Shown in pieces: positions 5,877-58,180 of a stretch of 64,000 bases of DNA. The notes under the pieces were generated by a model. That model was not told the origin of the DNA. It made no database searches and worked only from the letters and a program-made list of their open reading frames with translations. The translations under genes and the position numbers were made by a program. Each line of letters begins with the position of its first letter. The first letter of the stretch is position 1. Source of the stretch: Candidatus Parcubacteria bacterium (GTDB lineage: Bacteria; Patescibacteriota; Minisyncoccia; Minisyncoccales; JAGMDC01); contig JAGMAD010000005.1 in the NCBI GenBank assembly GCA_023130975.1, positions 22,933-86,932 of the forward strand, read 5' to 3'.

Positions 5877-7712
5877 TTAACTCAAAACTTTCAAGTAGAC
5901 ATCAGAAGGGATTTTAATTTTGCCTCTTTCCTTGAGTTTTTTCTTTCCCTTTTTCTGTTTTTCTAAGAGTTTTCTTTTTCTGGTATAGTCACCGCCGTAA
6001 AGAGGAGCAATAACGTCCTTGCCTCTTGCTCTAACTGTTTCCCGGGCAATAATTTTTCCATCAACAACAGCTTGAAGAGCAACGCTAAATTGTTGAGGAG
6101 GCAGAACTTCTTTTATTTTCTTTAAAAACTTCCTGGCTTCTGAATATGCCTTATTTCTGGGAACAATTTTAGAAAATACTTCTTCTTTTTTTTCAGCTAT
6201 CAATGTCTCTATTTTCTTTAAATCAGATTTTTGATATCCTAAAATTTCGTAATTCATAGAGGCATAACCCTGAGAAGCTGACATAAGCTTATCGTAAAAG
6301 CCAGTAATAATTTCTCTTAAAGGACAATAATGTATTAAAAGTAATTTATTTGGTCCCAGATATTCAGTCCCAATATATTTTGTTTCAAATTCATCCAACA
6401 CTTTCATTACTTTGCCTAAATAATCCGAGAGGGTAATAATTTCTAATTTAACATAGGGTTCTTGAATCTTTTTGCCTTCACCCTGCTTGCTTTTTGAGCC
6501 AGCGTAAAGGGAACCCGGCCAGTCAGCTGATGAATAAATTAAAGTTTCTTTATTATTTTCATCAATAATTTTATAAACTACTGAAGGCGAAAAAACTATT
6601 AATTCTAAATCAAACTCTCTGCGAAGACGCTCTACAGCAATTTCTAAATGTAAAGAGCCAAGAAACCCGCAGCGAAATCCTTGTCCAAAAATTTCTTTAT
6701 GCTCTGGCTCAAAATATAAAGAAGCATCATTTAGTTTTAATTTACTTAAAGATTCTTTCAATAAACCGTACTTTTTAGAATTTTCCGGATAAATACTTAC
6801 AAAAACAACCGGCTTCGGCTCCTTATAACCCGGCAAGGCCTCAATATCAACAACTTTTAACTTTTCACTTTTAACTTTTAACTTGGTTATGGTGTCTCCA
6901 ACTCGAACTTTGCCTGGTTCTTTAATGCCAGTAGCGATATAACCGATTTCACCAGCAGACAAAACATCTTTTGGTAAAAATTCTGGTTTAAAATAACCCA
7001 GCTCTTTTATTTTTGCTTCGGTTTCAGAAGCCATCAAGTATATTTCTTTATTAGTTTCTATCTGACCATCTACAACCCGAACATAAGCAATAACCCCTTT
7101 ATAGGCATCGTATTTGGAATCAAAAATCAAAGCCCGAAATGGCTTTTCTTTTTTTTCTATAGGCAAAGGCACCTTCTCTATTACTTTCTCTAAAACCTTC
7201 TCAACATTGGTGCCCTTTTTAGCTGAAATAGATAAAATATCCTGTTCTGAAATATCCAGAATTTTCGCTAATTCTTTTTTTGTTTCTTCAATTTTGGCCG
7301 TGGCTGGAAGCAAATCAATTTTGTTAATTACTGGAATAATGACCAAATCTTGTTTTTTAGCCAATTCTAAATTAGCTAAGGTCTGGGCTTGAATTCCCTT
7401 AATAACATCTACCAACAAAATTGCTCCCTCTACAGCTGCTAAAGAACGAGAAACTTCGTAAGAAAAATCCACATGGCCAGGAGTATCAATTAGATTCAGA
7501 ATGAATCCTTTATACTCCATTCGGCAAGGTTGAAGTTTGATGGTAATTCCTTTTTCTCTTTCTAAGTCCATCATATCTAAAAACTGCTCCTTCATTTTTT
7601 CTTCAGGAACAGCATTAGTTAGTTCTAAAAACCTATCAGCTAAAGTAGATTTACCGTGATCTACGTGCGAAATAATTACAAAATTGCGAATCTGTTTTTT
7701 TATTGTTTCCAT
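5877..7712 (-). CDS. lepA: Elongation factor 4 (LepA)
   Basis: METIKKQIRNFVIISHVDHGKSTLADRFLE...DTPGHVDF...NKIDL show the GTPase motifs. The product is 611 aa from the ATG at 7712. The ORF-track start at 7835 would overlap murJ by 136 nt and is rejected. Confidence 0.93.
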   Translation of the reverse strand: METIKKQIRNFVIISHVDHGKSTLADRFLELTNAVPEEKMKEQFLDMMDLEREKGITIKLQPCRMEYKGFILNLIDTPGHVDFSYEVSRSLAAVEGAILLVDVIKGIQAQTLANLELAKKQDLVIIPVINKIDLLPATAKIEETKKELAKILDISEQDILSISAKKGTNVEKVLEKVIEKVPLPIEKKEKPFRALIFDSKYDAYKGVIAYVRVVDGQIETNKEIYLMASETEAKIKELGYFKPEFLPKDVLSAGEIGYIATGIKEPGKVRVGDTITKLKVKSEKLKVVDIEALPGYKEPKPVVFVSIYPENSKKYGLLKESLSKLKLNDASLYFEPEHKEIFGQGFRCGFLGSLHLEIAVERLRREFDLELIVFSPSVVYKIIDENNKETLIYSSADWPGSLYAGSKSKQGEGKKIQEPYVKLEIITLSDYLGKVMKVLDEFETKYIGTEYLGPNKLLLIHYCPLREIITGFYDKLMSASQGYASMNYEILGYQKSDLKKIETLIAEKKEEVFSKIVPRNKAYSEARKFLKKIKEVLPPQQFSVALQAVVDGKIIARETVRARGKDVIAPLYGGDYTRKRKLLEKQKKGKKKLKERGKIKIPSDVYLKVLS

Positions 7713-9091
7713 TTTAACCGAGTTGAAAATATTAAAAGTAAAGCAAGTTGAAATATAGCTGAAAAAGACAGGGCTAAAGGCAAGCCAATGACTTGAATAT
7801 TTTCTAAATTTTGGATATTGAGAAAGCTGGTCCAAAATTGTTGAAAAGAATTATTAAAAGAAAGTAAATGAACGAAATAAAAACAAAGGAAAACATTTAT
7901 CAGGGTTGCTATTACGCTGGCAAAAGCCGGAATTTTAGTGTTTTGAACAGCATAAAATGCTTTAGCAATCAAAAGAACCAGGGACTGGGCGAAAATTCCA
8001 AAGCAAATCATAGCTAAACAAGCAGAAGTCAATTGGGCGTCTAACAAACTAAACTTCCCTACTCTCAGAATAATATTGACTACTTCTTCTTTAAAAATAA
8101 AAAGGAGAATACTTAAAAATAAACTTAAAAAAAGAATTTTATAAAAAACAGAAAAAAAGATATCATTGAATTTTTCTTTCTGCTTTTTGGCAAATGACAA
8201 ACTCAAGCTGGGAAAAGCAGCCGTGGAAAAAGAAATTGCCACTAAGGTTAAAAGAGGACGAGAAAGATTTTCTGCTAAATTAAAAACAGCTATGCTTCCA
8301 GCGCTCAAAGTAGAAGCAATAATGGTTACTACCACTAAATTAATTTGAGTGGCAGCTAATCCTATAGAGCGAGGAATAGTTAGTTTTATTGTTTTTTTAA
8401 AACCGGGTTCAGAAAAATTAAAAATTTTTTCATACTTAAATCCAGTTTTAAATAAAACCGGAATTTGAATCAAAAAGTGCAAAAGAGCTCCAAAAGCTAC
8501 TCCCCAAGCCAAACCTTTAATACCCATATAAGGAACAAAAAATAAAATGCCGAAAATAATACCAAGATTATACATTATCGGAGCCAAGGAAGTAATGAGA
8601 AATCTTCTAAAGACCCGTAGAATTCCAGAGATTATATTACTCATCCCTAAGATAATCGGGCTTAAAAGCATAATCCTGGTTAAAAGTGTTGTCAGGACTT
8701 TTTTTTCAGCCGAAAAGCCAGGGGCAATCAAAGAAATTAATTGGGGAGCAAATATAAACAAGACGAGAGAAGCGATTATTAAAATAAACAAAAATAAATT
8801 TAAAAGATTGGAGAGATATTGCCAGGCCTTGTCTTTGGAACTAATTAAATACTGGCTGAAAAGAGGAATAATGGCTGCGGAAATAGCACCGGTCATTAAG
8901 ACCATTGTTAAGAAATCCGGGATTTCAAAAGCAGCATAATATATGTCTAATTCGTCTCCAGCGCCGAATTTGCCAGCTAAAAGCCGGTCTCTAATAAAAC
9001 CCAAAAGAGCGCTAATTAAAAAAGCCCCGGCCAATATAAAAGCAGCTGAATTAATGTTTTTGGTTTGGAGGTTAAAAATTCTACGAAACAT
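7700..9091 (-). CDS. murJ: Lipid II flippase MurJ (MviN family)
   Basis: The 463-aa polytopic membrane protein has the N-terminus SAAFILAGAFLISALLGFIRDRLLAGKFGAGDELDIYYAAFEIPD, which is typical of MurJ. Confidence 0.85.
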   Translation of the reverse strand: MFRRIFNLQTKNINSAAFILAGAFLISALLGFIRDRLLAGKFGAGDELDIYYAAFEIPDFLTMVLMTGAISAAIIPLFSQYLISSKDKAWQYLSNLLNLFLFILIIASLVLFIFAPQLISLIAPGFSAEKKVLTTLLTRIMLLSPIILGMSNIISGILRVFRRFLITSLAPIMYNLGIIFGILFFVPYMGIKGLAWGVAFGALLHFLIQIPVLFKTGFKYEKIFNFSEPGFKKTIKLTIPRSIGLAATQINLVVVTIIASTLSAGSIAVFNLAENLSRPLLTLVAISFSTAAFPSLSLSFAKKQKEKFNDIFFSVFYKILFLSLFLSILLFIFKEEVVNIILRVGKFSLLDAQLTSACLAMICFGIFAQSLVLLIAKAFYAVQNTKIPAFASVIATLINVFLCFYFVHLLSFNNSFQQFWTSFLNIQNLENIQVIGLPLALSFSAIFQLALLLIFSTRLKWKQ

Positions 9092-24658: not shown

Positions 24659-27190
24659 TTATCCATATTTAGGATAACAACATTTTTTATATTTTTTGCC
24701 GCTACCGCAGGGGCAAGGATCGTTCCGGCCTGGTTTGTTTTTACGAGCCCCGTCTTCATAACGAGGCCCGACCTCGTTATGAGATGGCACAGAAGTAGAT
24801 GGCTGGCTGAATGCCGGTGCTGAAACTGTTGCTTTTTCTTCTGGTTTAACCAAACTAACCCGGAAAAGAGTATCAACAATATTGGTCTCAATCATATTAA
24901 GAAGCTGGCGAAACATTTTATGGCCTTCATTTTTGTATTCTACTAATGGATCCTGCTGTCCATAAGCGCGTAAGCGAACAGAATCTCTTAAATACTCCAT
25001 ATTTTCCAAATGGTCCATCCAAAGGAAATCCAAACTCCGCAAACTAATAATTTTTTCCACTTTTCTCATATTCTCTTCGCCTATTTCTTTTTCTTTTTTC
25101 TCATAATCTTGCTCTGTCTTCCCCTGTTTCTTAACCATTTCTATAATTTTGGCTTTTCGCTCCTCGCTTTTCGCTTCTAAGATTTCTCTTCGCTTTTTAT
25201 AGATTACTTCCCTGTGTTTGTTTAAAACATCATCATAGTCCAATAAATGTTTTCTCAAATCAAAATTCATTCCTTCAATTTTCTCCTGCGCTGATTCAAT
25301 CACTCCTGAAACCATTTTAGCTTCAATTGCCTGGTCCTCTGGAATTTTCAGCATTTCCATCATTTTCTGGATTCTTTCACCGCCGAAAATTCTTAATAAA
25401 TCGTCTGCCAAAGAAACAAAGAATTGAGAAGAACCAGGATCGCCCTGCCTGCCAGACCGGCCCCGCAATTGATTGTCAATTCTTCTGGCTTCATGCCTTT
25501 CTGTACCGATAACGGAAAGCCCTTTGCTTTTAACAACTTTTTCTGCTTCTTCTTTATTAGGAGGATTGCCGCCTAAAATTATATCCACTCCCCTGCCAGC
25601 CATATTAGTAGCAATAGTCACTGCCTTATATCTGCCTGCCTGAGCAATAATTTCTCCTTCTTTCTGGTGATGCTTGGCATTTAAAATCTGATGAGGAACT
25701 CCTTCTCGATCTAACAGCTTTCCTAAATATTCATTTTTCTCAATAGAAGTAGTGCCAACCAAAACCGGCTGTCCTTTTTGATGCCTTTCTTTAATCTCTG
25801 CCACCACTGCCTTAAATTTTCCGCTTTCTGTTTTGTAAATTCTATCTGGCAATACCTCGCGAATCATTGGCTTGTTTGTCGGTATTATCACCACCTCTAA
25901 ACCATAAACCTTGTCAAATTCTTCTGCTGAAGTGGCAGCTGTTCCAGTCATCCCAGCTAATTTATCGTAAAGCCGAAAGTAATTCTGAAAAGTAATTGAA
26001 GCTAATGTTTTTGATTCTGGCTGAACTGCTACCCCTTCTTTTGCCTCAATGGCTTGATGAAGACCCCCGGAATAGCGCCTGCCAGGCAAAAGCCGTCCAG
26101 TGAAATCATCAACAATAATAACTTGACCATCCTTTACCACATAGTCCCTATCTTTCTTGAAAAGAGCTTGGGCGCGGAGAGATTGCTCTAAGTGATGTAA
26201 ATATTTTATGCCTTTTTCCTGATAAATATTATCCATACCTAAGATTTTCTCTATTTTTTCAATGCCCGGCTCAGTTAAGGTAACAGCTTTCATCTTTTCA
26301 TCAATTTCATAATCAGATTCCTTTTTTAATTGAGGAATAATTTTGGCAAACTCTCCATACGCTTTCGTTGCTTCCATATCCGGAGCAGAAATAATCAAAG
26401 GGGTTCTGGCCTCGTCAATTAAAATTGAGTCAACTTCATCAACAATCGCAAAATTAAATTCACGCTGAGCTTTATCTTTTAAGTCATAAACCATATTATC
26501 CCTTAAATAATCAAAACCGAATTCATTGTTAGTGCCATAAGTAATATTCGCTTGGTATGCCTCTTTTCTTGAACAAGGCCTTAAATAACTTTCAATAACT
26601 TTAAATCCGCCCAAAGTGTCTCTTTCTTCATCTCTTTCACTATTAGATTCTTGATTCTTGATTCTTGATTCTTGATTTTTTTCTTGAAATTCTGGATCAT
26701 AAATACAGGCTGTATCATGCACTAGACAACCAACTGACAAGCCGAGCAAGTGATAAATCTGTCCCATCCAAACTGTGTCTCTTTTAGCTAAATAATCATT
26801 AACTGTTACTACATGAACACCCTTATCTGTTAAAGCATTTAAATAAATTGGCATAGTAGATGCCAATGTTTTTCCTTCACCGGTTTTCATTTCTCCAATT
26901 CTTCCTTGGTGCAATATAATACCGCCGATTAATTGAACATCAAAATGCCTTTGGTTTAAAGTCCTTTTTGCTGCTTCTCTTGTTAAAGCAAATGCTTTTG
27001 GTAATATATCATCAAGCGTCTTACCCTTTTTTAATTCTTCTTTGAGTTTTTCTGATTCTAAACGAAGCTTTTCATCAGAAAAACCCTCGAACTCTTGTTC
27101 GAGGTTATTTATCTGCTCAACGATTGGCTGAATTTTCTTTAAATACTTCTCGTTAGCATCGCCAAAAAGTTTAGACAAAACCTTCATCAT
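24659..27190 (-). CDS. secA: Preprotein translocase ATPase SecA
   Basis: 843 aa with [44 protein letters not shown] and the C-terminal zinc motif [13 protein letters not shown]. Confidence 0.95.
26646..26680. repeat. Heptanucleotide microsatellite (GATTCTT)4 plus a partial unit, inside secA
   Basis: Four perfect tandem units span 26646-26673. Translated on the minus strand they give [12 protein letters not shown]. Confidence 0.85.
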
Positions 27191-27228
27191 ATCTAATTTG
27201 ATTTTAACAAATTTTTATAAAAAAACAA

Positions 27229-27296
27229 CCCCGCACCTTTTCTAGACAGCTTTGAATTTTTGAAGCCTTTGGCTTCTGTCCAGAAAAGGTGCGGGG
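27229..27296. mobile_element. 68-nt palindromic element copy forming a 23-bp stem with a T-run upstream of secA
   Basis: AACCCCGCACCTTTTCTAGACAG ... CTGTCCAGAAAAGGTGCGGGGTT. The terminal 13 nt CCCCGCACCTTTT are identical to the pgk copy. On the minus strand it is followed by GTTTTTTTTAT. Confidence 0.7.
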
Positions 27297-27312
27297 TTGG
27301 AGAAGAAATTTA

Positions 27313-27339
27313 CTTCTTTTTCTTCTTTTTCTTCTTTTT
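27313..27339. repeat. (CTTCTTTTT)3 perfect 9-nt tandem repeat
   Basis: Three exact copies. On the minus strand the repeat sits inside the ATG-GCA-(AAG/AAA)10-TAA micro-ORF at 27310-27348. Confidence 0.85.
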
Positions 27340-27519
27340 CTTTGCCATTTTATTTAATTATTTCAGAAAGCACATATTTTATGCTTTCAGAAATAACTAT
27401 CTTACATTAAGGCAAATATTCGACTTCTTATTTGCCCGTCCGCCAAAATTTTTTAAAAATTAGGCGGGCAAAAATTTTAAAGAAAATTCATTACTTTATT
27501 TTTTCATTTTAAAAAAGTT

Positions 27520-27534
27520 TGTCAATGTGGATAA
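27520..27534 (-). promoter_or_regulatory. TTATCCACA directly abutting a TTGACA -35 hexamer
   Basis: The minus strand reads agTTATCCACATTGACAaactttttt. The -10 box is unclear (AAAAAT). Confidence 0.35.
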
Positions 27535-27544
27535 CTGTAATTAA

Positions 27545-27620
27545 AAATTTTCAATTATCAATTTTCAATTTTCATTAAATTTTCAATTCTTTAATTTTCA
27601 ATAATTAGAAATTAGAAATT
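27545..27620. repeat. Degenerate TTTTCAA-rich tract downstream of murB
   Basis: ATTTTCAATTATCAATTTTCAATTTTCATTAAATTTTCAATTCTTTAATTTTCAAT. This is the reverse complement of the TTGAAAA heptamer repeated inside murB. Confidence 0.5.
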
Positions 27621-27621
27621 T

Positions 27622-28581
27622 CTATTGTAGATATTTTATCTCTTCTTTCAGTTTAATTCCGAATTTTTCTTTTACTTTTCCTTTTGCTAAATTTATTAAT
27701 TTCAAAACATCTTTTGCCTTGGCATCACCTAAATTGACAATGAAATTAGCATGCTTTTCAGAAATCTGGGCTTTGCCAGCCTTCTTTCCTTTTAGTCCGC
27801 ATTTCTCAATCAGCCAACCAGCAGGATGTTTCTTGGGGTTTTGGAATATTGAGCCAGCTGAAGGAAAATTTAAGGGTTGATTGTCTTTTCGCCATTTTAG
27901 ATTCTCTCTTACTCTTTTTTTGATTTCTTCTTTATCTCCTTTTTTTAATTCAATTTCTGCTGAAAGAATTATCAAGTTCTTGTTGTGTTTAAAAATACTA
28001 TCCCTGTATTTAAACTTACAATCTTTTTTCTTCAAAATTCTGGTTTGGAATTTGGAGTTTGGAATTTGGGATTTGTTTGGGATTTGGGATTTGGGATTTG
28101 GGATTTCCAAAACCGTTACGGTTTTGGTTATATCTTTCATTGACTGTTCAAAAGCGCTAGCATTCCCTCTAATAGCACCACCAACTGTTATTCCCGGAAT
28201 TCCTACTGCCCATTCCATACCAATTAATCCATTTTTTGTCGCTTCTAAAACTAACAAAGATAGAGGTGCCCCTGCTCCAACATTAATTTTTGTAATTTGA
28301 GATTTGGGATTTGATTGAAAATTGAAAATTGAAAATTGAAAATTTATAACTAGTCCCTGGTATCCCTCATCTGCCACAAGAACATTGCTTCCACCACCTA
28401 AAACAAAAAAAGACAGCTTTAATTCATTTGCTGTCTTAATAGCTTTGATTAAATCATCTTTATTTTTTGCTGTATAAAAATATTTTGCCGGGCCGCCAAT
28501 CTTAAAGGTTGTATAATTTTTCAATAAAATGTTTTTCTTAAACTTTTTAAAAATTTTAGATTTTGATTTGTCATTTTGCAT
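27622..28581 (-). CDS. murB: UDP-N-acetylenolpyruvoylglucosamine reductase MurB
   Basis: NYTTFKIGGPAKYF, FVLGGGSNVLV, GIPGTVGGAIRGNA and GSIFQNP. Two heptamer-repeat tracts interrupt it in frame. Confidence 0.88.
   Translation of the reverse strand: MQNDKSKSKIFKKFKKNILLKNYTTFKIGGPAKYFYTAKNKDDLIKAIKTANELKLSFFVLGGGSNVLVADEGYQGLVINFQFSIFNFQSNPKSQITKINVGAGAPLSLLVLEATKNGLIGMEWAVGIPGITVGGAIRGNASAFEQSMKDITKTVTVLEIPNPKSQIPNKSQIPNSKFQTRILKKKDCKFKYRDSIFKHNKNLIILSAEIELKKGDKEEIKKRVRENLKWRKDNQPLNFPSAGSIFQNPKKHPAGWLIEKCGLKGKKAGKAQISEKHANFIVNLGDAKAKDVLKLINLAKGKVKEKFGIKLKEEIKYLQ
28042..28108. repeat. Heptanucleotide array (GATTTGG-type, about 9 units, imperfect) inside murB
   Basis: GGTTTGG AATTTGG AGTTTGG AATTTGG GATTTGT TTGG GATTTGG GATTTGG GATTTGG GATTTCC. 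It encodes EIPNPKSQIPNKSQIPNSKFQT. Confidence 0.85.
28295..28343. repeat. Heptanucleotide array (ATTTGNG x3, then TGAAAAT x4) inside murB
   Basis: ATTTGAG ATTTGGG ATTTGAT TGAAAAT TGAAAAT TGAAAAT TGAAAAT. It encodes NFQFSIFNFQSNPKSQI. Confidence 0.85.
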
Positions 28582-28759
28582 TTTGATTTTTAATTTTTGA
28601 TTTTTTTAAAATGGCCGGGAGAGTTGACTCCAATTCTAAGTCTTTAGTGAGTGCTGCCTCCCGACCTTTTTTATTGTAGCAAATTTTTAAAAAATATGCT
28701 ACCATAAGAACATGGCAAGGCCATAACCTTGATTTCTTGCTTCGCTCGAAATTTAAAAA

Positions 28760-30529
28760 ATGACCATGAACTCAAAGATAAAAATTATTTTTTTCATAGC
28801 TATACTATTCTTTCTTTACCTGCCTTTTTCTGCTTCAGCTGTTTTTTTAGGCGAGAAACAGTCCTTTTTTGTTGATTCTTCTTATGACTCATCTGAAAGA
28901 GAAGAAATATCTGCCCTCCTTCAAAGAATAGGAAAAGAAATCTATTTTTTTATTGACAACGACTACTGGGATTCTTTAAATCTTGAGGAAAAAAATAAAA
29001 CAAGACAATCTCTTCAAGATTTAGATAATGAATTTCACGGCAAAATATATCCAACCTTAACTTCTTTTTACGGCTCTGAATGGAAACCGGGAATTGATAA
29101 AGACAGCCGTCTGACAGTTCTAATTCATCCAATGATTGAAGAAGCCGGAGGATATTTTAGGAGCGCTGACGAATATGAAAAAATACAAGTTCCTAACTCA
29201 AATGAAAAAGAAATGGTTTATCTCAACTCTCTTTATATTAACCAACCAGGGTCTAAAAACTTGCTGGCTCATGAATTCACTCATTTAATCACTTTTTATC
29301 AAAAGAATGTAAAACAAGAAATAGAAGAAGAAATATGGCTCAACGAAGCCAGGGCAGAATATGCTCCTACTTTACTCGGTTATGATGATATCTATGAAAA
29401 CAGTAATCTTGAAAATAGGGTCAAAATCTTCTTAGCCAACCCGACTGACTCCGTTACCGAATGGCAGAACGCTCTTTCTGATTACGGAGTTCTTAATCTT
29501 TTTACCCAATATTTAGTTGAACAATATGGAATAGAAATTTTGACAGATTCAATGAGAACAGAAAAAAAAGGGATTAACAGCTTAAATTATGCTTTAAAGA
29601 AAAACGGGTATGAAGAAAACTTTACTGATGTCTTTACTAATTGGACGATTACTGTTTTAGTTAACGATTGTGATTTAGGAAAAGAATACTGTTATCAAAA
29701 TGAGAATTTAAAAAATTTGAAAATAACTCCTTCTTTTAATTTTCTGCCCCTAATAGGCAAAAGTAGTTTAGGAGTCAGCCAGACAACTAAAAACTGGGCC
29801 GGCAATTGGTATAAATTTATCGGCGGAGAAGGAAATCTGAAAATAAGTTTTTTGGGCGATCCTGAAAGTTTATTTAAAATACCTTGCATTACCAAAAATT
29901 CCTCTGGAAAATACGAGATTGACTTTTTTCAATTAGATGAAAATCAAAGGGGAGAAATTTTTGTTTCAGATTTTGGAAAAGAAATTACTTCTGTTGTTAT
30001 TATTCCCTCTATTCAAAGCAAAATGTCTGGATTTTTAAATCCAGAACCAAGTTTCCCATTTTTCTGGGAGGCCTCTGCTACTGCTGTTGAAGAAAAGGAA
30101 AAAGAAGAAAAGCCAAACTTTTTGGAAAAGCCGATTTCGGAAATGACCAAACAAGAAATTATTTTCAAAATTGAAGAGATTCAGAATATCTTAAATCAGC
30201 TTCAAGCCCAGCTTACTGAATTAAACAAAGAAAATGTTGAAGAGAACCAAGAAAATCTTAGCTGCCAAAGATTTGAAGAAAATCTCTCTTATGGATTATT
30301 AAATGATGAGAGGGTTCGCTGCCTTCAAGAATTTTTGAAATCAGAAGGAAAAGCAATTTATCCAGAAGGACTAGTCACCGGGAATTTTTTTAAATTAACT
30401 AAAGCGGCTGTAATTCACTTCCAAGAAAAATACCAAGAGGAAATTTTAGCACCCTGGGGATTAGAAAAAGGAACTGGTTTTGTCGGTTCTCTAACCAGAA
30501 AAAAAATCAACCAGCTCTTAAACAGCTAA
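28760..30529 (+). CDS. Secreted zinc metallopeptidase-like protein with a C-terminal coiled coil and a peptidoglycan-binding-like domain
   Basis: Signal peptide IIFFIAILFFLYLPFSASA. HExxH motif LLAHEFTHL with a downstream NEARAEY. The C-terminus is homologous to the N-terminal anchor of the 1248-aa protein. Confidence 0.6.
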   Translation: MTMNSKIKIIFFIAILFFLYLPFSASAVFLGEKQSFFVDSSYDSSEREEISALLQRIGKEIYFFIDNDYWDSLNLEEKNKTRQSLQDLDNEFHGKIYPTLTSFYGSEWKPGIDKDSRLTVLIHPMIEEAGGYFRSADEYEKIQVPNSNEKEMVYLNSLYINQPGSKNLLAHEFTHLITFYQKNVKQEIEEEIWLNEARAEYAPTLLGYDDIYENSNLENRVKIFLANPTDSVTEWQNALSDYGVLNLFTQYLVEQYGIEILTDSMRTEKKGINSLNYALKKNGYEENFTDVFTNWTITVLVNDCDLGKEYCYQNENLKNLKITPSFNFLPLIGKSSLGVSQTTKNWAGNWYKFIGGEGNLKISFLGDPESLFKIPCITKNSSGKYEIDFFQLDENQRGEIFVSDFGKEITSVVIIPSIQSKMSGFLNPEPSFPFFWEASATAVEEKEKEEKPNFLEKPISEMTKQEIIFKIEEIQNILNQLQAQLTELNKENVEENQENLSCQRFEENLSYGLLNDERVRCLQEFLKSEGKAIYPEGLVTGNFFKLTKAAVIHFQEKYQEEILAPWGLEKGTGFVGSLTRKKINQLLNS

Positions 30530-54587: not shown

Positions 54588-54589
54588 AC

Positions 54590-54629
54590 TTAGTTAGCTT
54601 AGTTAGCTTAGTTAGCTTAGTTAGCTTGC
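54590..54629. repeat. (TTAGTTAGC)4 perfect 9-nt tandem repeat plus TTGC, in a divergent promoter region
   Basis: The units are 54590-98, 54599-607, 54608-16 and 54617-25. It starts 3 nt from the epimerase ATG and is followed by TTATAAT and the plus-strand Wzy_C gene. Confidence 0.9.
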
Positions 54630-57035: not shown

Positions 57036-58180
57036 AGCTGGCTAATCTGCGACTGGATTAAAATAATTAGCTGATTTAGAAGTTCAATAATCATTTGTTG
57101 AACTTCTTTTATTTTTGCTTTAAGTTCCTGTTCGTTCATTTCGGAAATCGGTTTTTCTTCCTCTTCTTCCTCTTCTTCCTCTTCTTCGTCAATAGGTGGG
57201 TATTCACAAGAACCATCATCTCTTGTTGCTTCAGGATTGTAGTTTAAGGCATTAGAATCTATGCAACCTTCTATCACTAATTCTGGGAAATTAACTTCTA
57301 CGGTAATAGAATCTCCATCTGTTTCAGTATTATTGAGCCAATCAGCTGATTTTGTTTTAAGAATATAATCACCTTCTGTAATATCCTGCCATTGATATTC
57401 CCAGGTTCCATAATTGGAACTAGTTGAATCAACTTCATACCAAACATTATTGATGCCTATCTTTACCCAAGAAGGAGTTGAACCGCCTTGGTCACGAGCT
57501 ACGCCTTTGATAGTATAATTCTCAGTATCAATGATTGAATTATTTTCTGGTTCAGTAATAACTGTTTTTGGAGCAAGATTATCAATAACAAAATCGCGGA
57601 TTGTTTGAGAATAGGAATTAACAATGGCTTCGTCACTGGGACCATTGTTTTTTGATTCCATAAAGATGCCTAAGTCCCCTATATCAAAATCGCCATTGCT
57701 GTTTTCATCGTATAATATTGGTATTCTTAATTGGATAGAGCGATTAGCAGTGGCATGTTTCCATATCTCAACGCTTACAAAAATTCTTAAGCCCTCTAAG
57801 GACACTAGCTCTTCTAAATTATCTAAATACCAGTTATTATTTAAACCATTAAAAGTAAAAGTGCCTAATTCTTTATCTTTTTCTAAACCTTGAAAACCAG
57901 GAGTGTCATCATCTTTCCAAAGTTTAAATCTTTCAATATCATAAAAATCTTTAGCTGTCCCTATATTTTCCAAAGCAATGGCTAAAAGTTTATCTTCTCC
58001 ATTTCTTCCTGAAGGAATTGTCAAATCCATTACCAATTTATCAAACTCTTGAGGATAACAATAACTACTTGGCGCTTGATGATTGGTAAAATCACTGTTT
58101 ATTAATGCCTTAGCAGAACTGGTTCCGAAAAAAGAAAAAATAATAAAACTAACAATTAAAATTTTATAAGAATTTTTCAT
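57032..58180 (-). CDS. Secreted protein with beta-sandwich-like regions, a poly-Glu linker and a C-terminal PISEM coiled coil
   Basis: Signal peptide ILIVSFIIFSFFGTSSAKA. Cys-bracketed motif CIDSNALNYNPEATRDDGSCEY, then EEEEEEEEEEEKPISEMNEQELKAKIKEVQQ. Confidence 0.5.
   Translation of the reverse strand: MKNSYKILIVSFIIFSFFGTSSAKALINSDFTNHQAPSSYCYPQEFDKLVMDLTIPSGRNGEDKLLAIALENIGTAKDFYDIERFKLWKDDDTPGFQGLEKDKELGTFTFNGLNNNWYLDNLEELVSLEGLRIFVSVEIWKHATANRSIQLRIPILYDENSNGDFDIGDLGIFMESKNNGPSDEAIVNSYSQTIRDFVIDNLAPKTVITEPENNSIIDTENYTIKGVARDQGGSTPSWVKIGINNVWYEVDSTSSNYGTWEYQWQDITEGDYILKTKSADWLNNTETDGDSITVEVNFPELVIEGCIDSNALNYNPEATRDDGSCEYPPIDEEEEEEEEEEEKPISEMNEQELKAKIKEVQQMIIELLNQLIILIQSQISQL

Follow-up and report, generated by a model that had tools for sequence, protein, structure and literature searches.

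How can tandem repeats with a 7-nt unit, a length that is not a multiple of three, persist within the reading frame of a core peptidoglycan gene, and do they act there as a switch, as a regulatory element, or as neither? This question is raised by murB, which encodes UDP-N-acetylenolpyruvoylglucosamine reductase and carries several such tracts in a 64,000-nt stretch of contig JAGMAD010000005.1 from a Candidatus Parcubacteria bacterium (the whole of this stretch is called the window below, and coordinates are positions within it). An earlier note on this DNA had offered three explanations for the tracts: a contingency (phase-variable) locus, a tolerated selfish microsatellite, or a hotspot for assembly artefacts. 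Our analysis supports the second of these with additions, in that the arrays are orthologous, change in a concerted manner, and pass filters of stop codon, frame, and structure. We consider it probable that the murB tracts are slippage-generated, selection-filtered, translated heptanucleotide microsatellites evolving in concert, and that they represent a mutational feature found across the Parcubacteria lineage and not a regulatory device.

Heptamer arrays in murB and the excess of period 7

The gene and the arrays in and around it are listed below. Period-7 tracts were detected with Tandem Repeats Finder (TRF) and with our own lag-7 scan, and units are given in the sense orientation of the gene unless stated otherwise.

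27622–28581, minus strand: murB, the host of the arrays, an open reading frame (ORF) of 319 amino acids (aa) identified from Pfam and PDB matches and an AlphaFold2 model.
28553–28605, minus strand: 5′ array of the AAAATCA/AAAATGC type, running across the 5′ untranslated region (UTR), the ATG, and the first codons (MQNDKSKSK); TRF, 7.9 copies, 70% matches.
28314–28344, minus strand: first block of site 2, (AATTTTC)x4.4, perfect (TRF, 100% matches), encoding NFQFSIFNFQ.
28295–28313 (to 28314 in TRF, 2.9 copies), minus strand: second block of site 2, CAAATCC CAAATCT CAAAT, of the ATTTGAG type, encoding SNPKSQI.
28107–28127, no strand assigned: perfect palindrome CCAAAACCG-TTA-CGGTTTTGG with 9-bp arms, abutting the site 3 array and coding for TKTVTVLE.
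28044–28106, minus strand: the whole site 3 array, imperfect, of period 7 in TRF (9.4 copies, 84% matches).
28077–28106, minus strand: block A of site 3, (ATCCCAA)x4, which is (TTGGGAT)x4 on the plus strand, a perfect 31-nt run encoding IPNPKSQIPN.
28075–28076, minus strand: two-base phase break of site 3, AC, between blocks A and B, also present in relatives.
28044–28074, minus strand: block B of site 3, AAATCCC AAATTCC AAACTCC AAATTCC, encoding KSQIPNSKFQ.
27603–27620, minus strand: 3′-flank array directly after the stop codon, (AATTTCT)x2.6 (unit listed as AATTAGA; TRF, 100% matches).
27546–27602, minus strand: 3′-flank array, (TTGAAAA)n, imperfect, found by TRF (unit listed as AATTTTC), the reverse complement of the site 2 array.

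The product of the 319-aa ORF has Pfam matches to FAD_binding_4 (1.3e-16) and MurB_C (1.3e-37), is matched by solved MurB structures (PDB 4pyt, E = 7.8e-46), and gives an AlphaFold2 model with a mean predicted local distance difference test (pLDDT) score of 88.8. By these domains and this fold it is MurB, with the catalytic role predicted from sequence and model. It is most closely related to MurB from Candidatus Nealsonbacteria and other members of the Parcubacteria, with the MurB search returning nothing above 73% identity. The 7-nt tandem tracts that the earlier note had placed inside murB were recovered by TRF at 28044–28106, 28295–28314, and 28314–28344, all within the ORF, and their translations, EIPNPKSQIPNKSQIPNSKFQ and NFQFSIFNFQSNPKSQI, are those that (CCAAATC)n and (TTTTCAA)n yield when each of the three frames is used in turn, as it had said. 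The further heptamer-periodic tract that it had seen at the 5′ end of the gene corresponds to 28553–28605, where it spans the start codon, and the tract in inverted orientation downstream of murB corresponds to 27546–27602.

The window contains six tracts of period 7, compared with 0.0 in the dinucleotide-preserving shuffles that served as the null for the period spectrum, and none of the other periods from 2 to 15 was enriched, save for 14 (twice 7) and three 9-mers. At least seven different heptamer units are present in the window alone. The comparison set consisted of 80 murB loci, chiefly from metagenome-assembled genomes of Patescibacteria, which together with the window amounted to 81 sequences and 1.3 Mb. 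These contained 79 period-7 tracts, followed by 16 of period 9 and by 8 or fewer for each of the other periods from 4 to 12, and the units varied between loci (AAAATTC, AAATGTC, AAGCTAC, AATTCAC, AAACTAC, AAATTCG, and others). Perfect period-7 runs of at least 17 nt numbered 64, against approximately 4 expected by our own estimate. Their density was 5.6 times higher outside ORFs (20 in 97 kb) than inside ORFs of at least 100 aa (44 in 1,201 kb); 44 of the 64 perfect runs lay inside ORFs, as did all 17 of the runs of at least 31 nt. Tract density was 0.43 per kb in murB and 0.076 per kb in the rest of the same loci. In the window, the sequence GATTTGGGATTTGG occurred with up to two mismatches eight times, against 1.06 expected, each time within murB.

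Two further tracts of the window lie in other genes.

26646–26677, minus strand: perfect secA tract, (AAGAATC)x4.6 (unit listed as GATTCTT), encoding a 12-residue peptide in the variable NBD1 loop.
6852–6884, minus strand: period-7 tract of the sense AAAAGTT type (unit listed as AACTTTT), encoding KLKVKSEKLKV inside a 652-aa ORF at 5877–7835.

In most SecA orthologues the NBD1 loop segment has a canonical length of 55–59 aa, and other heptad-coded inserts were found in this variable loop in the orthologues P0180, P0224, P0233, and P0196. The 652-aa ORF is one that, from its translation alone, we take to be lepA (EF4); the consensus unit of its tract contains TAA, and a variant unit, GTGAAAA, leaves the frame open. 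Two side observations belong here. The best 120 SecA matches (P0173–P0292) were all 176–350 aa long, some of them on contigs of 100–800 kb, which may be due to the database ranking, contig ends, or split secA genes. Period 9 ranks second among the repeat periods in the window and the loci alike, and the 9-nt tandem repeats of the window are TTTTCTTCT x3.8 at 27309–27342, CTTAGTTAG x4.3 (perfect) at 54589–54627, and TTCTTCCTC x3.7 (perfect) at 57155–57187.

Array positions and their constraints in MurB orthologues

When the tracts of the orthologues were mapped onto the window MurB, a period-7 tract was found at site 2 (residues 83–93) in 18 of the 80, at site 3 (residues 163–181) in 6, near residue 250 in 2, and at the gene ends in several, including arrays placed right at the start and stop codons. 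Heptad peptides such as KFQIPNS, KMQNAKC, KLQITNY, KCQMSNV, and FQFSIFN appeared in the protein alignment at the N-terminus, site 2, and site 3. At site 2 the arrays share a register, in which a C/G-A-A codon (Q, H, R, or E) occupies segment position 7, counted from the conserved G of GLVI. For the closest relatives, additional murB DNA was examined (L085 to L089), and a flank-pattern scan of metagenome contigs for near relatives led to one more locus, L090. In L085, an (AATTTTC) unit occupies the same site 2 codons as in the window, inside the canonical 25-aa segment; L087 and L089 also have the ATG within an AAAATGC unit of the 5′ array; and L086 carries (AATTTCT)x4 directly after the murB stop codon, in the same position as in the window.

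This recurrence bears on the possibility that the tracts are assembly or sequencing artefacts of low-complexity DNA. Repeats are classic sites of assembly error, and one contig of the set, L081, has a deletion in its array (see below). However, the window tracts are at most 67 nt, below typical read length, the ORF is intact with a product predicted to fold as MurB, and homologous arrays at these codons recur in dozens of assemblies made independently in various projects and with various assemblers. We therefore regard the artefact explanation as extremely unlikely.

The earlier note had expected both internal tracts to be insertions in surface loops, which held for site 3 and failed for site 2. 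At site 3, residues 164–175 have pLDDT values below 50 and form a loop between strands 152–159 and 179–184 in the AlphaFold2 model; a gap of approximately 16 residues opens here against the solved MurB structures, and blocks A and B together make up an insertion of approximately 16 aa. As modelled, site 3 is a true insertion in a disordered loop. At site 2, residues 80–96 are predicted to form a β-hairpin of the flavin adenine dinucleotide (FAD)-binding domain (strands 74–81 and 86–91, pLDDT approximately 85). The segment is 25 aa long in most orthologues, whether repeat-encoded or not, and in L037, L027, and L043 perfect arrays of 32–33 nt are fitted inside exactly 25 aa. Because the repeat-free and the repeat-bearing segments have the same length, the array encodes the native hairpin, whose hydrophobic positions 6, 11, 13, and 18 have a native 7-residue period. 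A second length class of 30–32 aa, roughly one 7-aa step longer, comprises the window, L015, L020, L001, L002, and L030; in the window it is the second block of site 2 that extends the canonical length, by 6 aa. Thus, the structural settings in which arrays are found include a disordered loop (site 3), a β-hairpin (site 2), the N-terminus, and the variable SecA loop.

When a heptamer array is translated, each of the seven cyclic triplets of its unit comes to be read as a codon, so that none of these may be TAA, TAG, or TGA. Consensus units were stop-free in the sense strand in 32 of the 40 arrays in coding sequence and in the antisense strand in 10 of the 40, and for intergenic arrays the proportion was 33% per strand; the composition-weighted expectation was 55%, which gives p = 0.001 for the sense excess. 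In AT-rich units, the need to be stop-free means that the junction from T to A can be bridged only by C, so that a TCAA/CCAA core in a fixed orientation results. The untranslated 3′-flank (TTGAAAA)n array has TGA in all three frames. In at least one array with a stop-containing consensus (L005, GATTTAA...GATTTAT), the would-be in-frame unit carries a substitution.

The second constraint is the reading frame. The earlier note had pointed out that slippage by one or two units would frameshift murB; this is correct, and it is mirrored in a 21-nt quantization of array lengths. Perfect runs in coding sequence were bimodal, with 17 of 44 at 31–35 nt and none at 27–30 nt, and the intergenic maximum was 26 nt; a run of 31–32 nt equals a seed of 10–11 nt plus 21 nt. 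Close relatives show the same step. The window, L086, L088, and L089 have a common site 3 architecture, consisting of block A with four to five ATNNCAA-type units, the AC break, and block B with one to four AAATTCC units. In block B, L089 has one unit to the four of the window and is thus exactly 21 nt shorter. The AC break, found also at site 2 of L088, is a shared derived feature and therefore argues for common descent or copying. The total length of site 3 is the same, 58 nt, in the window and L088, but block A consists of four identical ATCCCAA units in the former and of ATTTCAA, ATTCCAA, ATCCCAA, and ATTACAA in the latter, which demonstrates homogenization without a change in length. Furthermore, the composite module is colinear at site 2 as well, in both the window and L088 (in the window, the second block of site 2 is the counterpart of block B of site 3 in this alignment), and thus sites 2 and 3 of murB either exchange sequence or have received the same module.

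From these patterns we infer that slippage during DNA replication, or template switching, strongly biased toward 7-nt units, creates the arrays and re-homogenizes them; the period-7 excess, the perfect arrays, and homogenization at constant length are shown by the data, and the enzymology is inferred. Arrays that survive inside a gene pass three filters. First, the unit must be stop-free in all seven cyclic sense triplets, which in AT-rich units leads to the TCAA/CCAA core, its glutamine codon, and the fixed orientation. Second, the net change in length must be divisible by three, so that arrays move in steps of three units (21 nt, 7 aa) or contain compensating breaks such as AC. Third, the peptide with its 7-aa period must suit the protein, as it does in a loop, a hairpin, the N-terminus, and the SecA loop. 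An array that passes would keep its codon position over deep divergence while its unit drifts and is re-homogenized and the murB sites exchange sequence, so that the arrays would alter the length and sequence of loops without on/off switching.

Several other insertions were observed in MurB. In L054 (10200–10400), an Anaerolineae-labelled contig of 65% GC, a translated insertion at site 2 consists of a GC-rich hairpin (GTAGGGGCGCACGGCCATGCGCCCCTAC), AT-rich (ATTTCGA)x3.7, and two 14-mers (CATCCTGCCTCYTG), and the related unit GCAAGAG occurs twice more elsewhere on the contig. In L086 (1190–1260), a GC-rich palindrome of approximately 20 nt, CTGCCTGTCCGGCAGGCAGG, is nested in (AAATACG)n at site 2 and accounts for approximately 7 extra in-frame residues (PACPAGR); other copies of this palindrome were not found in 90 loci. 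A fourth site, between SAGE and LIE, holds a 16-aa (48-nt) repeat unit, GEEDKSSSLAFAAARL, in one copy in P0037 and in three copies in P0161, with a related single-copy insert in P0075 and none in P0164; judging from the protein sequence, the EEDKSSS part of this unit could be encoded by a hairpin-forming palindrome. Longer, non-heptad insertions are nested within the heptad tracts of P0042, P0058, and P0069 (alignment columns 120–150 and 220–275), reaching approximately 45 aa in P0069. Finally, two distinct murB loci, L006 and L031, come from one metagenome-assembled genome (isolate KM4336-41), with 52% and 45% identity to the window MurB, and are either paralogues or a product of bin contamination.

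Stability of the arrays and their possible pairing and copying

The suggestion of a contingency locus has a precedent in neuO of the Escherichia coli K1 prophage CUS-3, in which a variable number tandem repeat of 5′-AAGACTC-3′ ranges from 3 to 53 units, only multiples of 3 leave the gene ON, and it is OFF in 65.6% of complete genomes (PMC13001214). In murB, unit slippage would likewise toggle the gene, or a MurB variant, on and off, because three does not divide the unit length and slippage by a single unit therefore shifts the frame. However, within clusters of orthologues with at least 90% identity, the tract peptides were identical in all intact members that cover the tract (one such cluster has 15 listed members with one sequence, and another is found on approximately 40 contigs), and copy-number polymorphism at heptad tracts was not found inside these protein clusters. 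The length differences within clusters consisted of alternative start codons, truncated fragments, a distinct 48-nt repeat, and a small 6+2-aa indel in a site 3 loop that is not repetitive (P0156).

A single frame-breaking allele was found, and it counts in favor of phase variation in that it belongs to one orthologous species cluster. In L081, which over 6 kb shares 99.5–99.8% identity with L083 and L084, contigs in which murB is intact, 32 nt have been lost inside the site 2 array between 12-nt direct repeats (L081:2960–3140 compared with L082–L084:3185–3400), and murB is split into ORFs of 89 and 211 aa. Events that break the frame thus do occur at these tracts, but this one is rare and is not a unit step; it may be an allele that is still live, mark a lineage that is dying out, or stem from misassembly. 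In contrast to the long arrays of neuO, the longest perfect runs of the window are 31–32 nt, or 4.4–4.6 units, those within murB reach at most 4.4 units, and the 9.4-unit array is interrupted by mismatches and the 2-nt break. Moreover, MurB is a core peptidoglycan enzyme and neither a surface nor a modification gene product, and the other hosts are secA and the putative lepA. The short runs, the housekeeping hosts, and the invariance of the tract peptides together make phase variation very unlikely, L081 notwithstanding.

A different possibility is that the arrays are functional cis-elements, which would tune murB by pairing with the 3′ UTR, by folding of the template strand into a G-quadruplex, or by offering sites to which a regulator binds. 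The inverted arms at site 2 and in the 3′ flank extend over 59 nt at 81% complementarity, with a core of 27–31 nt at 87–89%, and are 697–748 nt apart; L085, whose MurB is 64% identical, has the same inverted pairing over 28 nt at 89%. The long-range pairing across the gene that the earlier note had considered possible is thus present in the sequence of the window and of one relative, but it does not extend further: a complementary 3′-flank array accompanies only 2 of 35 intragenic arrays (window and L085), and no covariation of units was found in the other 33. Since the pairing is confined to this pair, we treat it as shared ancestry and not as a general requirement. Block A also contains (GGGATTT)x4, a canonical G-quadruplex motif (G3N4 x4), on the plus strand, which is the template strand (28079–28102), and G-rich heptamers of four units from Xanthomonas and Nostoc have been reported to form G-quadruplexes (PMC4692102). 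The capacity is not conserved, however, because block A of relatives consists of mixed units, with one G3 or none in L088 and L089. In several relatives arrays adjoin the start and stop codons, which, like the very strong hot spot at site 2, would also fit a cis-element, whereas the units are lineage-specific and so provide no common binding motif. Taking both sides together, we judge a cis-regulatory role to be improbable.

The composite architecture also permits a reading in which a preformed heptamer module of approximately 58 nt is inserted or copied, as a mobile mini-element, into permissive sites through a mechanism that is dedicated or hitch-hiking, and does not grow in place. The same arrangement of four units, 2 nt, and AAATYCC units is found at site 2, at site 3, and across genomes; the perfect arrays in coding sequence are stereotyped at 31–32 nt; and small GC-rich palindromes lie in or beside the arrays of L086 and L054. 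The fraction of unit pairs with at most one mismatch was 0.35 within and 0.16 between genomes (permutation p < 0.002), which would suit genome-specific unit families, but this similarity, although significant, is confounded by base composition and is not relied on here. Against copying, the two murB units of the window form arrays only in and beside murB in the 64 kb; dispersed, near-identical copies of the kind expected of miniature inverted-repeat transposable elements or repetitive extragenic palindromes were seen neither for these units in the window nor for the L086 palindrome in the 90 loci; and the module is found without terminal inverted repeats, target-site duplications, or an association with a transposase. 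Furthermore, the site 2 arrays are often length-neutral, having 25 aa as in repeat-free orthologues, which insertion does not predict. A mobile module is therefore rather unlikely, though somewhat less so than a cis-regulatory element.

Some observations nevertheless sit uneasily with translated microsatellites generated by slippage and filtered by selection. The site 2 hot spot has approximately 100 times the background density by our own arithmetic, and an array with an AT-rich unit is present at site 2 even in the Anaerolineae contig of 65% GC; this recurrence exceeds what a purely neutral process easily explains. The occurrence of one module (four units, 2 nt, AAATYCC units) at two sites of murB suggests some copying and pasting on top of local slippage, and the retention of the inverted pair of site 2 and the 3′ flank in both the window and L085 could reflect function. 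The stability data come from orthologous clusters and not from the window's own population, as the closest match of the window MurB has 73% identity. In addition, single-unit steps pass through frameshifted, presumably lethal intermediates, so that three-unit jumps, compensating indels, or conversion are needed, none of which was directly observed.

Flanking features and known heptamer repeats

Several features flank the arrays. A part of the palindrome at 28107–28127, GTWACGGTTTTGGAA, is conserved in L087, L088, and L089, and the palindrome is common to the subclade with a MurB reading of ...KDITKTVTVLEI; it might stall replication and so favor slippage. Just upstream of murB, at 28612–28668 (minus-strand sense), there is a conserved 55-nt stem-loop (GGTCGGGAGGCAGCACTCACTAAAGACTTAGAATTGGAGTCAACTCTCCCGGCC) with a U-run after it, which is present in at least six loci (window, L013, L060, L085, L086, and L089; in L085 in the opposite orientation). 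Of its 14 predicted pairs 1 is compensatory. The element lacks a match in Rfam and occurs once in the window; a small RNA, a terminator, and a palindromic element are all conceivable. Downstream of the 3′ arrays, a conserved motif, AGTTATCCACATTGACAAAC, occurs at 27506–27540 of the window and in the 3′ flanks of L085, L086, L088, and L089; it includes the DnaA-box-like TTATCCACA and a TTGACA −35 hexamer and probably serves as the promoter region for the gene that follows downstream. A long, near-perfect hairpin (CAACCCCGCACCTTTTCTGGACAG...CTGTCTAGAAAAGGTGCGGGGTTG) occupies 27226–27299 in the secA 5′ UTR, and its database matches were spurious microRNA models only. In the stretch 27190–28800, no credible Rfam match and no tRNA were found. 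The window has a GC content of 33.5%, with nearly all genes on the minus strand and a GC skew without a switch of sign. A replication-origin or DnaA-box context for the AT-rich arrays was ruled out, as the GC skew is monotonic and gene orientation uniform throughout the window.

Among known systems, the closest in coding terms is neuO, in which a 7-nt repeat within the coding sequence is also read in three frames to give a peptide with a 7-aa period (PMC13001214). The units are alike as well, being A-rich with a single C before AA, and the secA unit AAGAATC is two positions removed from AAGACTC. However, the neuO arrays are long, occupy the 5′ end of a capsule-modifying gene that is accessory and phage-borne, and vary between and within strains, whereas those of murB and secA are short, lie inside conserved domains of housekeeping genes, are invariant within clusters, and are deeply conserved in position. 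An excess of heptameric simple sequence repeats (SSRs) in prokaryotes is on record for GGGAATC in Xanthomonas, GGGGAYT in Nostoc, and the short tandemly repeated repetitive (STRR) sequences of Calothrix and Nostoc, as well as for the TAACTGA heptamer of Beggiatoaceae and cyanobacteria (PMC4692102; PMC4679880). These resemble the present arrays in the over-representation of period 7, in arrays of two to six units with approximately four preferred, in inverted pairs, in adjacency to start and stop codons, and in length and sequence that vary between related species at conserved positions (PMC4692102; PMC4679880). They are, however, mainly intergenic and under-represented in coding sequence (PMC4692102; PMC4679880), and one unit dominates per genome, whereas here there are many units and approximately two thirds of the arrays are in ORFs, although their density per kb is higher outside them. 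The TAACTGA copies that do fall in ORFs lie at protein ends or in hypothetical proteins (PMC4679880), and those described here include arrays that encode elements of the catalytic domains of MurB and SecA.

In-ORF tandem repeats that add low-complexity or disordered peptide are also known from Borgs, whose perfect nucleotide repeats evolve rapidly and create intrinsically disordered regions (PMC9879509). Borgs are archaeal extrachromosomal elements, whereas the present arrays lie in essential chromosomal genes, have a 7-nt unit, and give a peptide period that corresponds to three units. The in-ORF repeats of Borgs reportedly have unit lengths divisible by 3. A 2008 study by Elhai et al. is said to describe small dispersed repeats nested in the heptamer repeats of Nostoc punctiforme. 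The palindrome (21 nt, GC-rich) within (AAATACG)n at site 2 of L086 and the hairpin beside (ATTTCGA)n in L054 resemble this arrangement, but no dispersed copies of these palindromes were found among our loci, and here the nested elements lie within an enzyme gene and are read in frame. Our literature searches for heptanucleotide or simple sequence repeats in Parcubacteria, Patescibacteria, or the candidate phyla radiation (CPR) returned nothing relevant, and four heptamer-related terms looked for are absent from the text of Lin and Kussell (2012). We found no description of translated heptamer arrays in essential genes of Patescibacteria in the searchable literature, although heptameric SSRs and repeats of the neuO kind are already known.

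Normally, repeats with a unit length not divisible by three are either eliminated from essential genes or put to use as switches in accessory ones, and here neither is the case. Throughout a huge radiation of uncultivated lineages, arrays persist in parts of the catalytic domains of core enzymes and change by quanta of seven amino acids, which makes them a testable case of a mutational bias writing protein sequence. They would explain part of the unusual length variation and of the low-complexity inserts in CPR proteins. For annotation, such tracts should be taken as real, and genes that are split at them may be genuine alleles; the number and the sequence of units may also provide markers for strain-level typing of Patescibacteria in metagenomes. 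More tentatively, the array state itself may have been kept at the same codons (the hairpin and loop of MurB and the NBD1 loop of SecA) since before the Parcubacteria classes diverged, through 21-nt expansion and contraction and conversion between sites, an idea that we hold to be possible but on balance doubtful. If true, it would represent a previously undescribed mode of protein-segment evolution and would imply either a lineage-specific property of replication or repair that favors 7-nt slippage or selection for repetitive segments.

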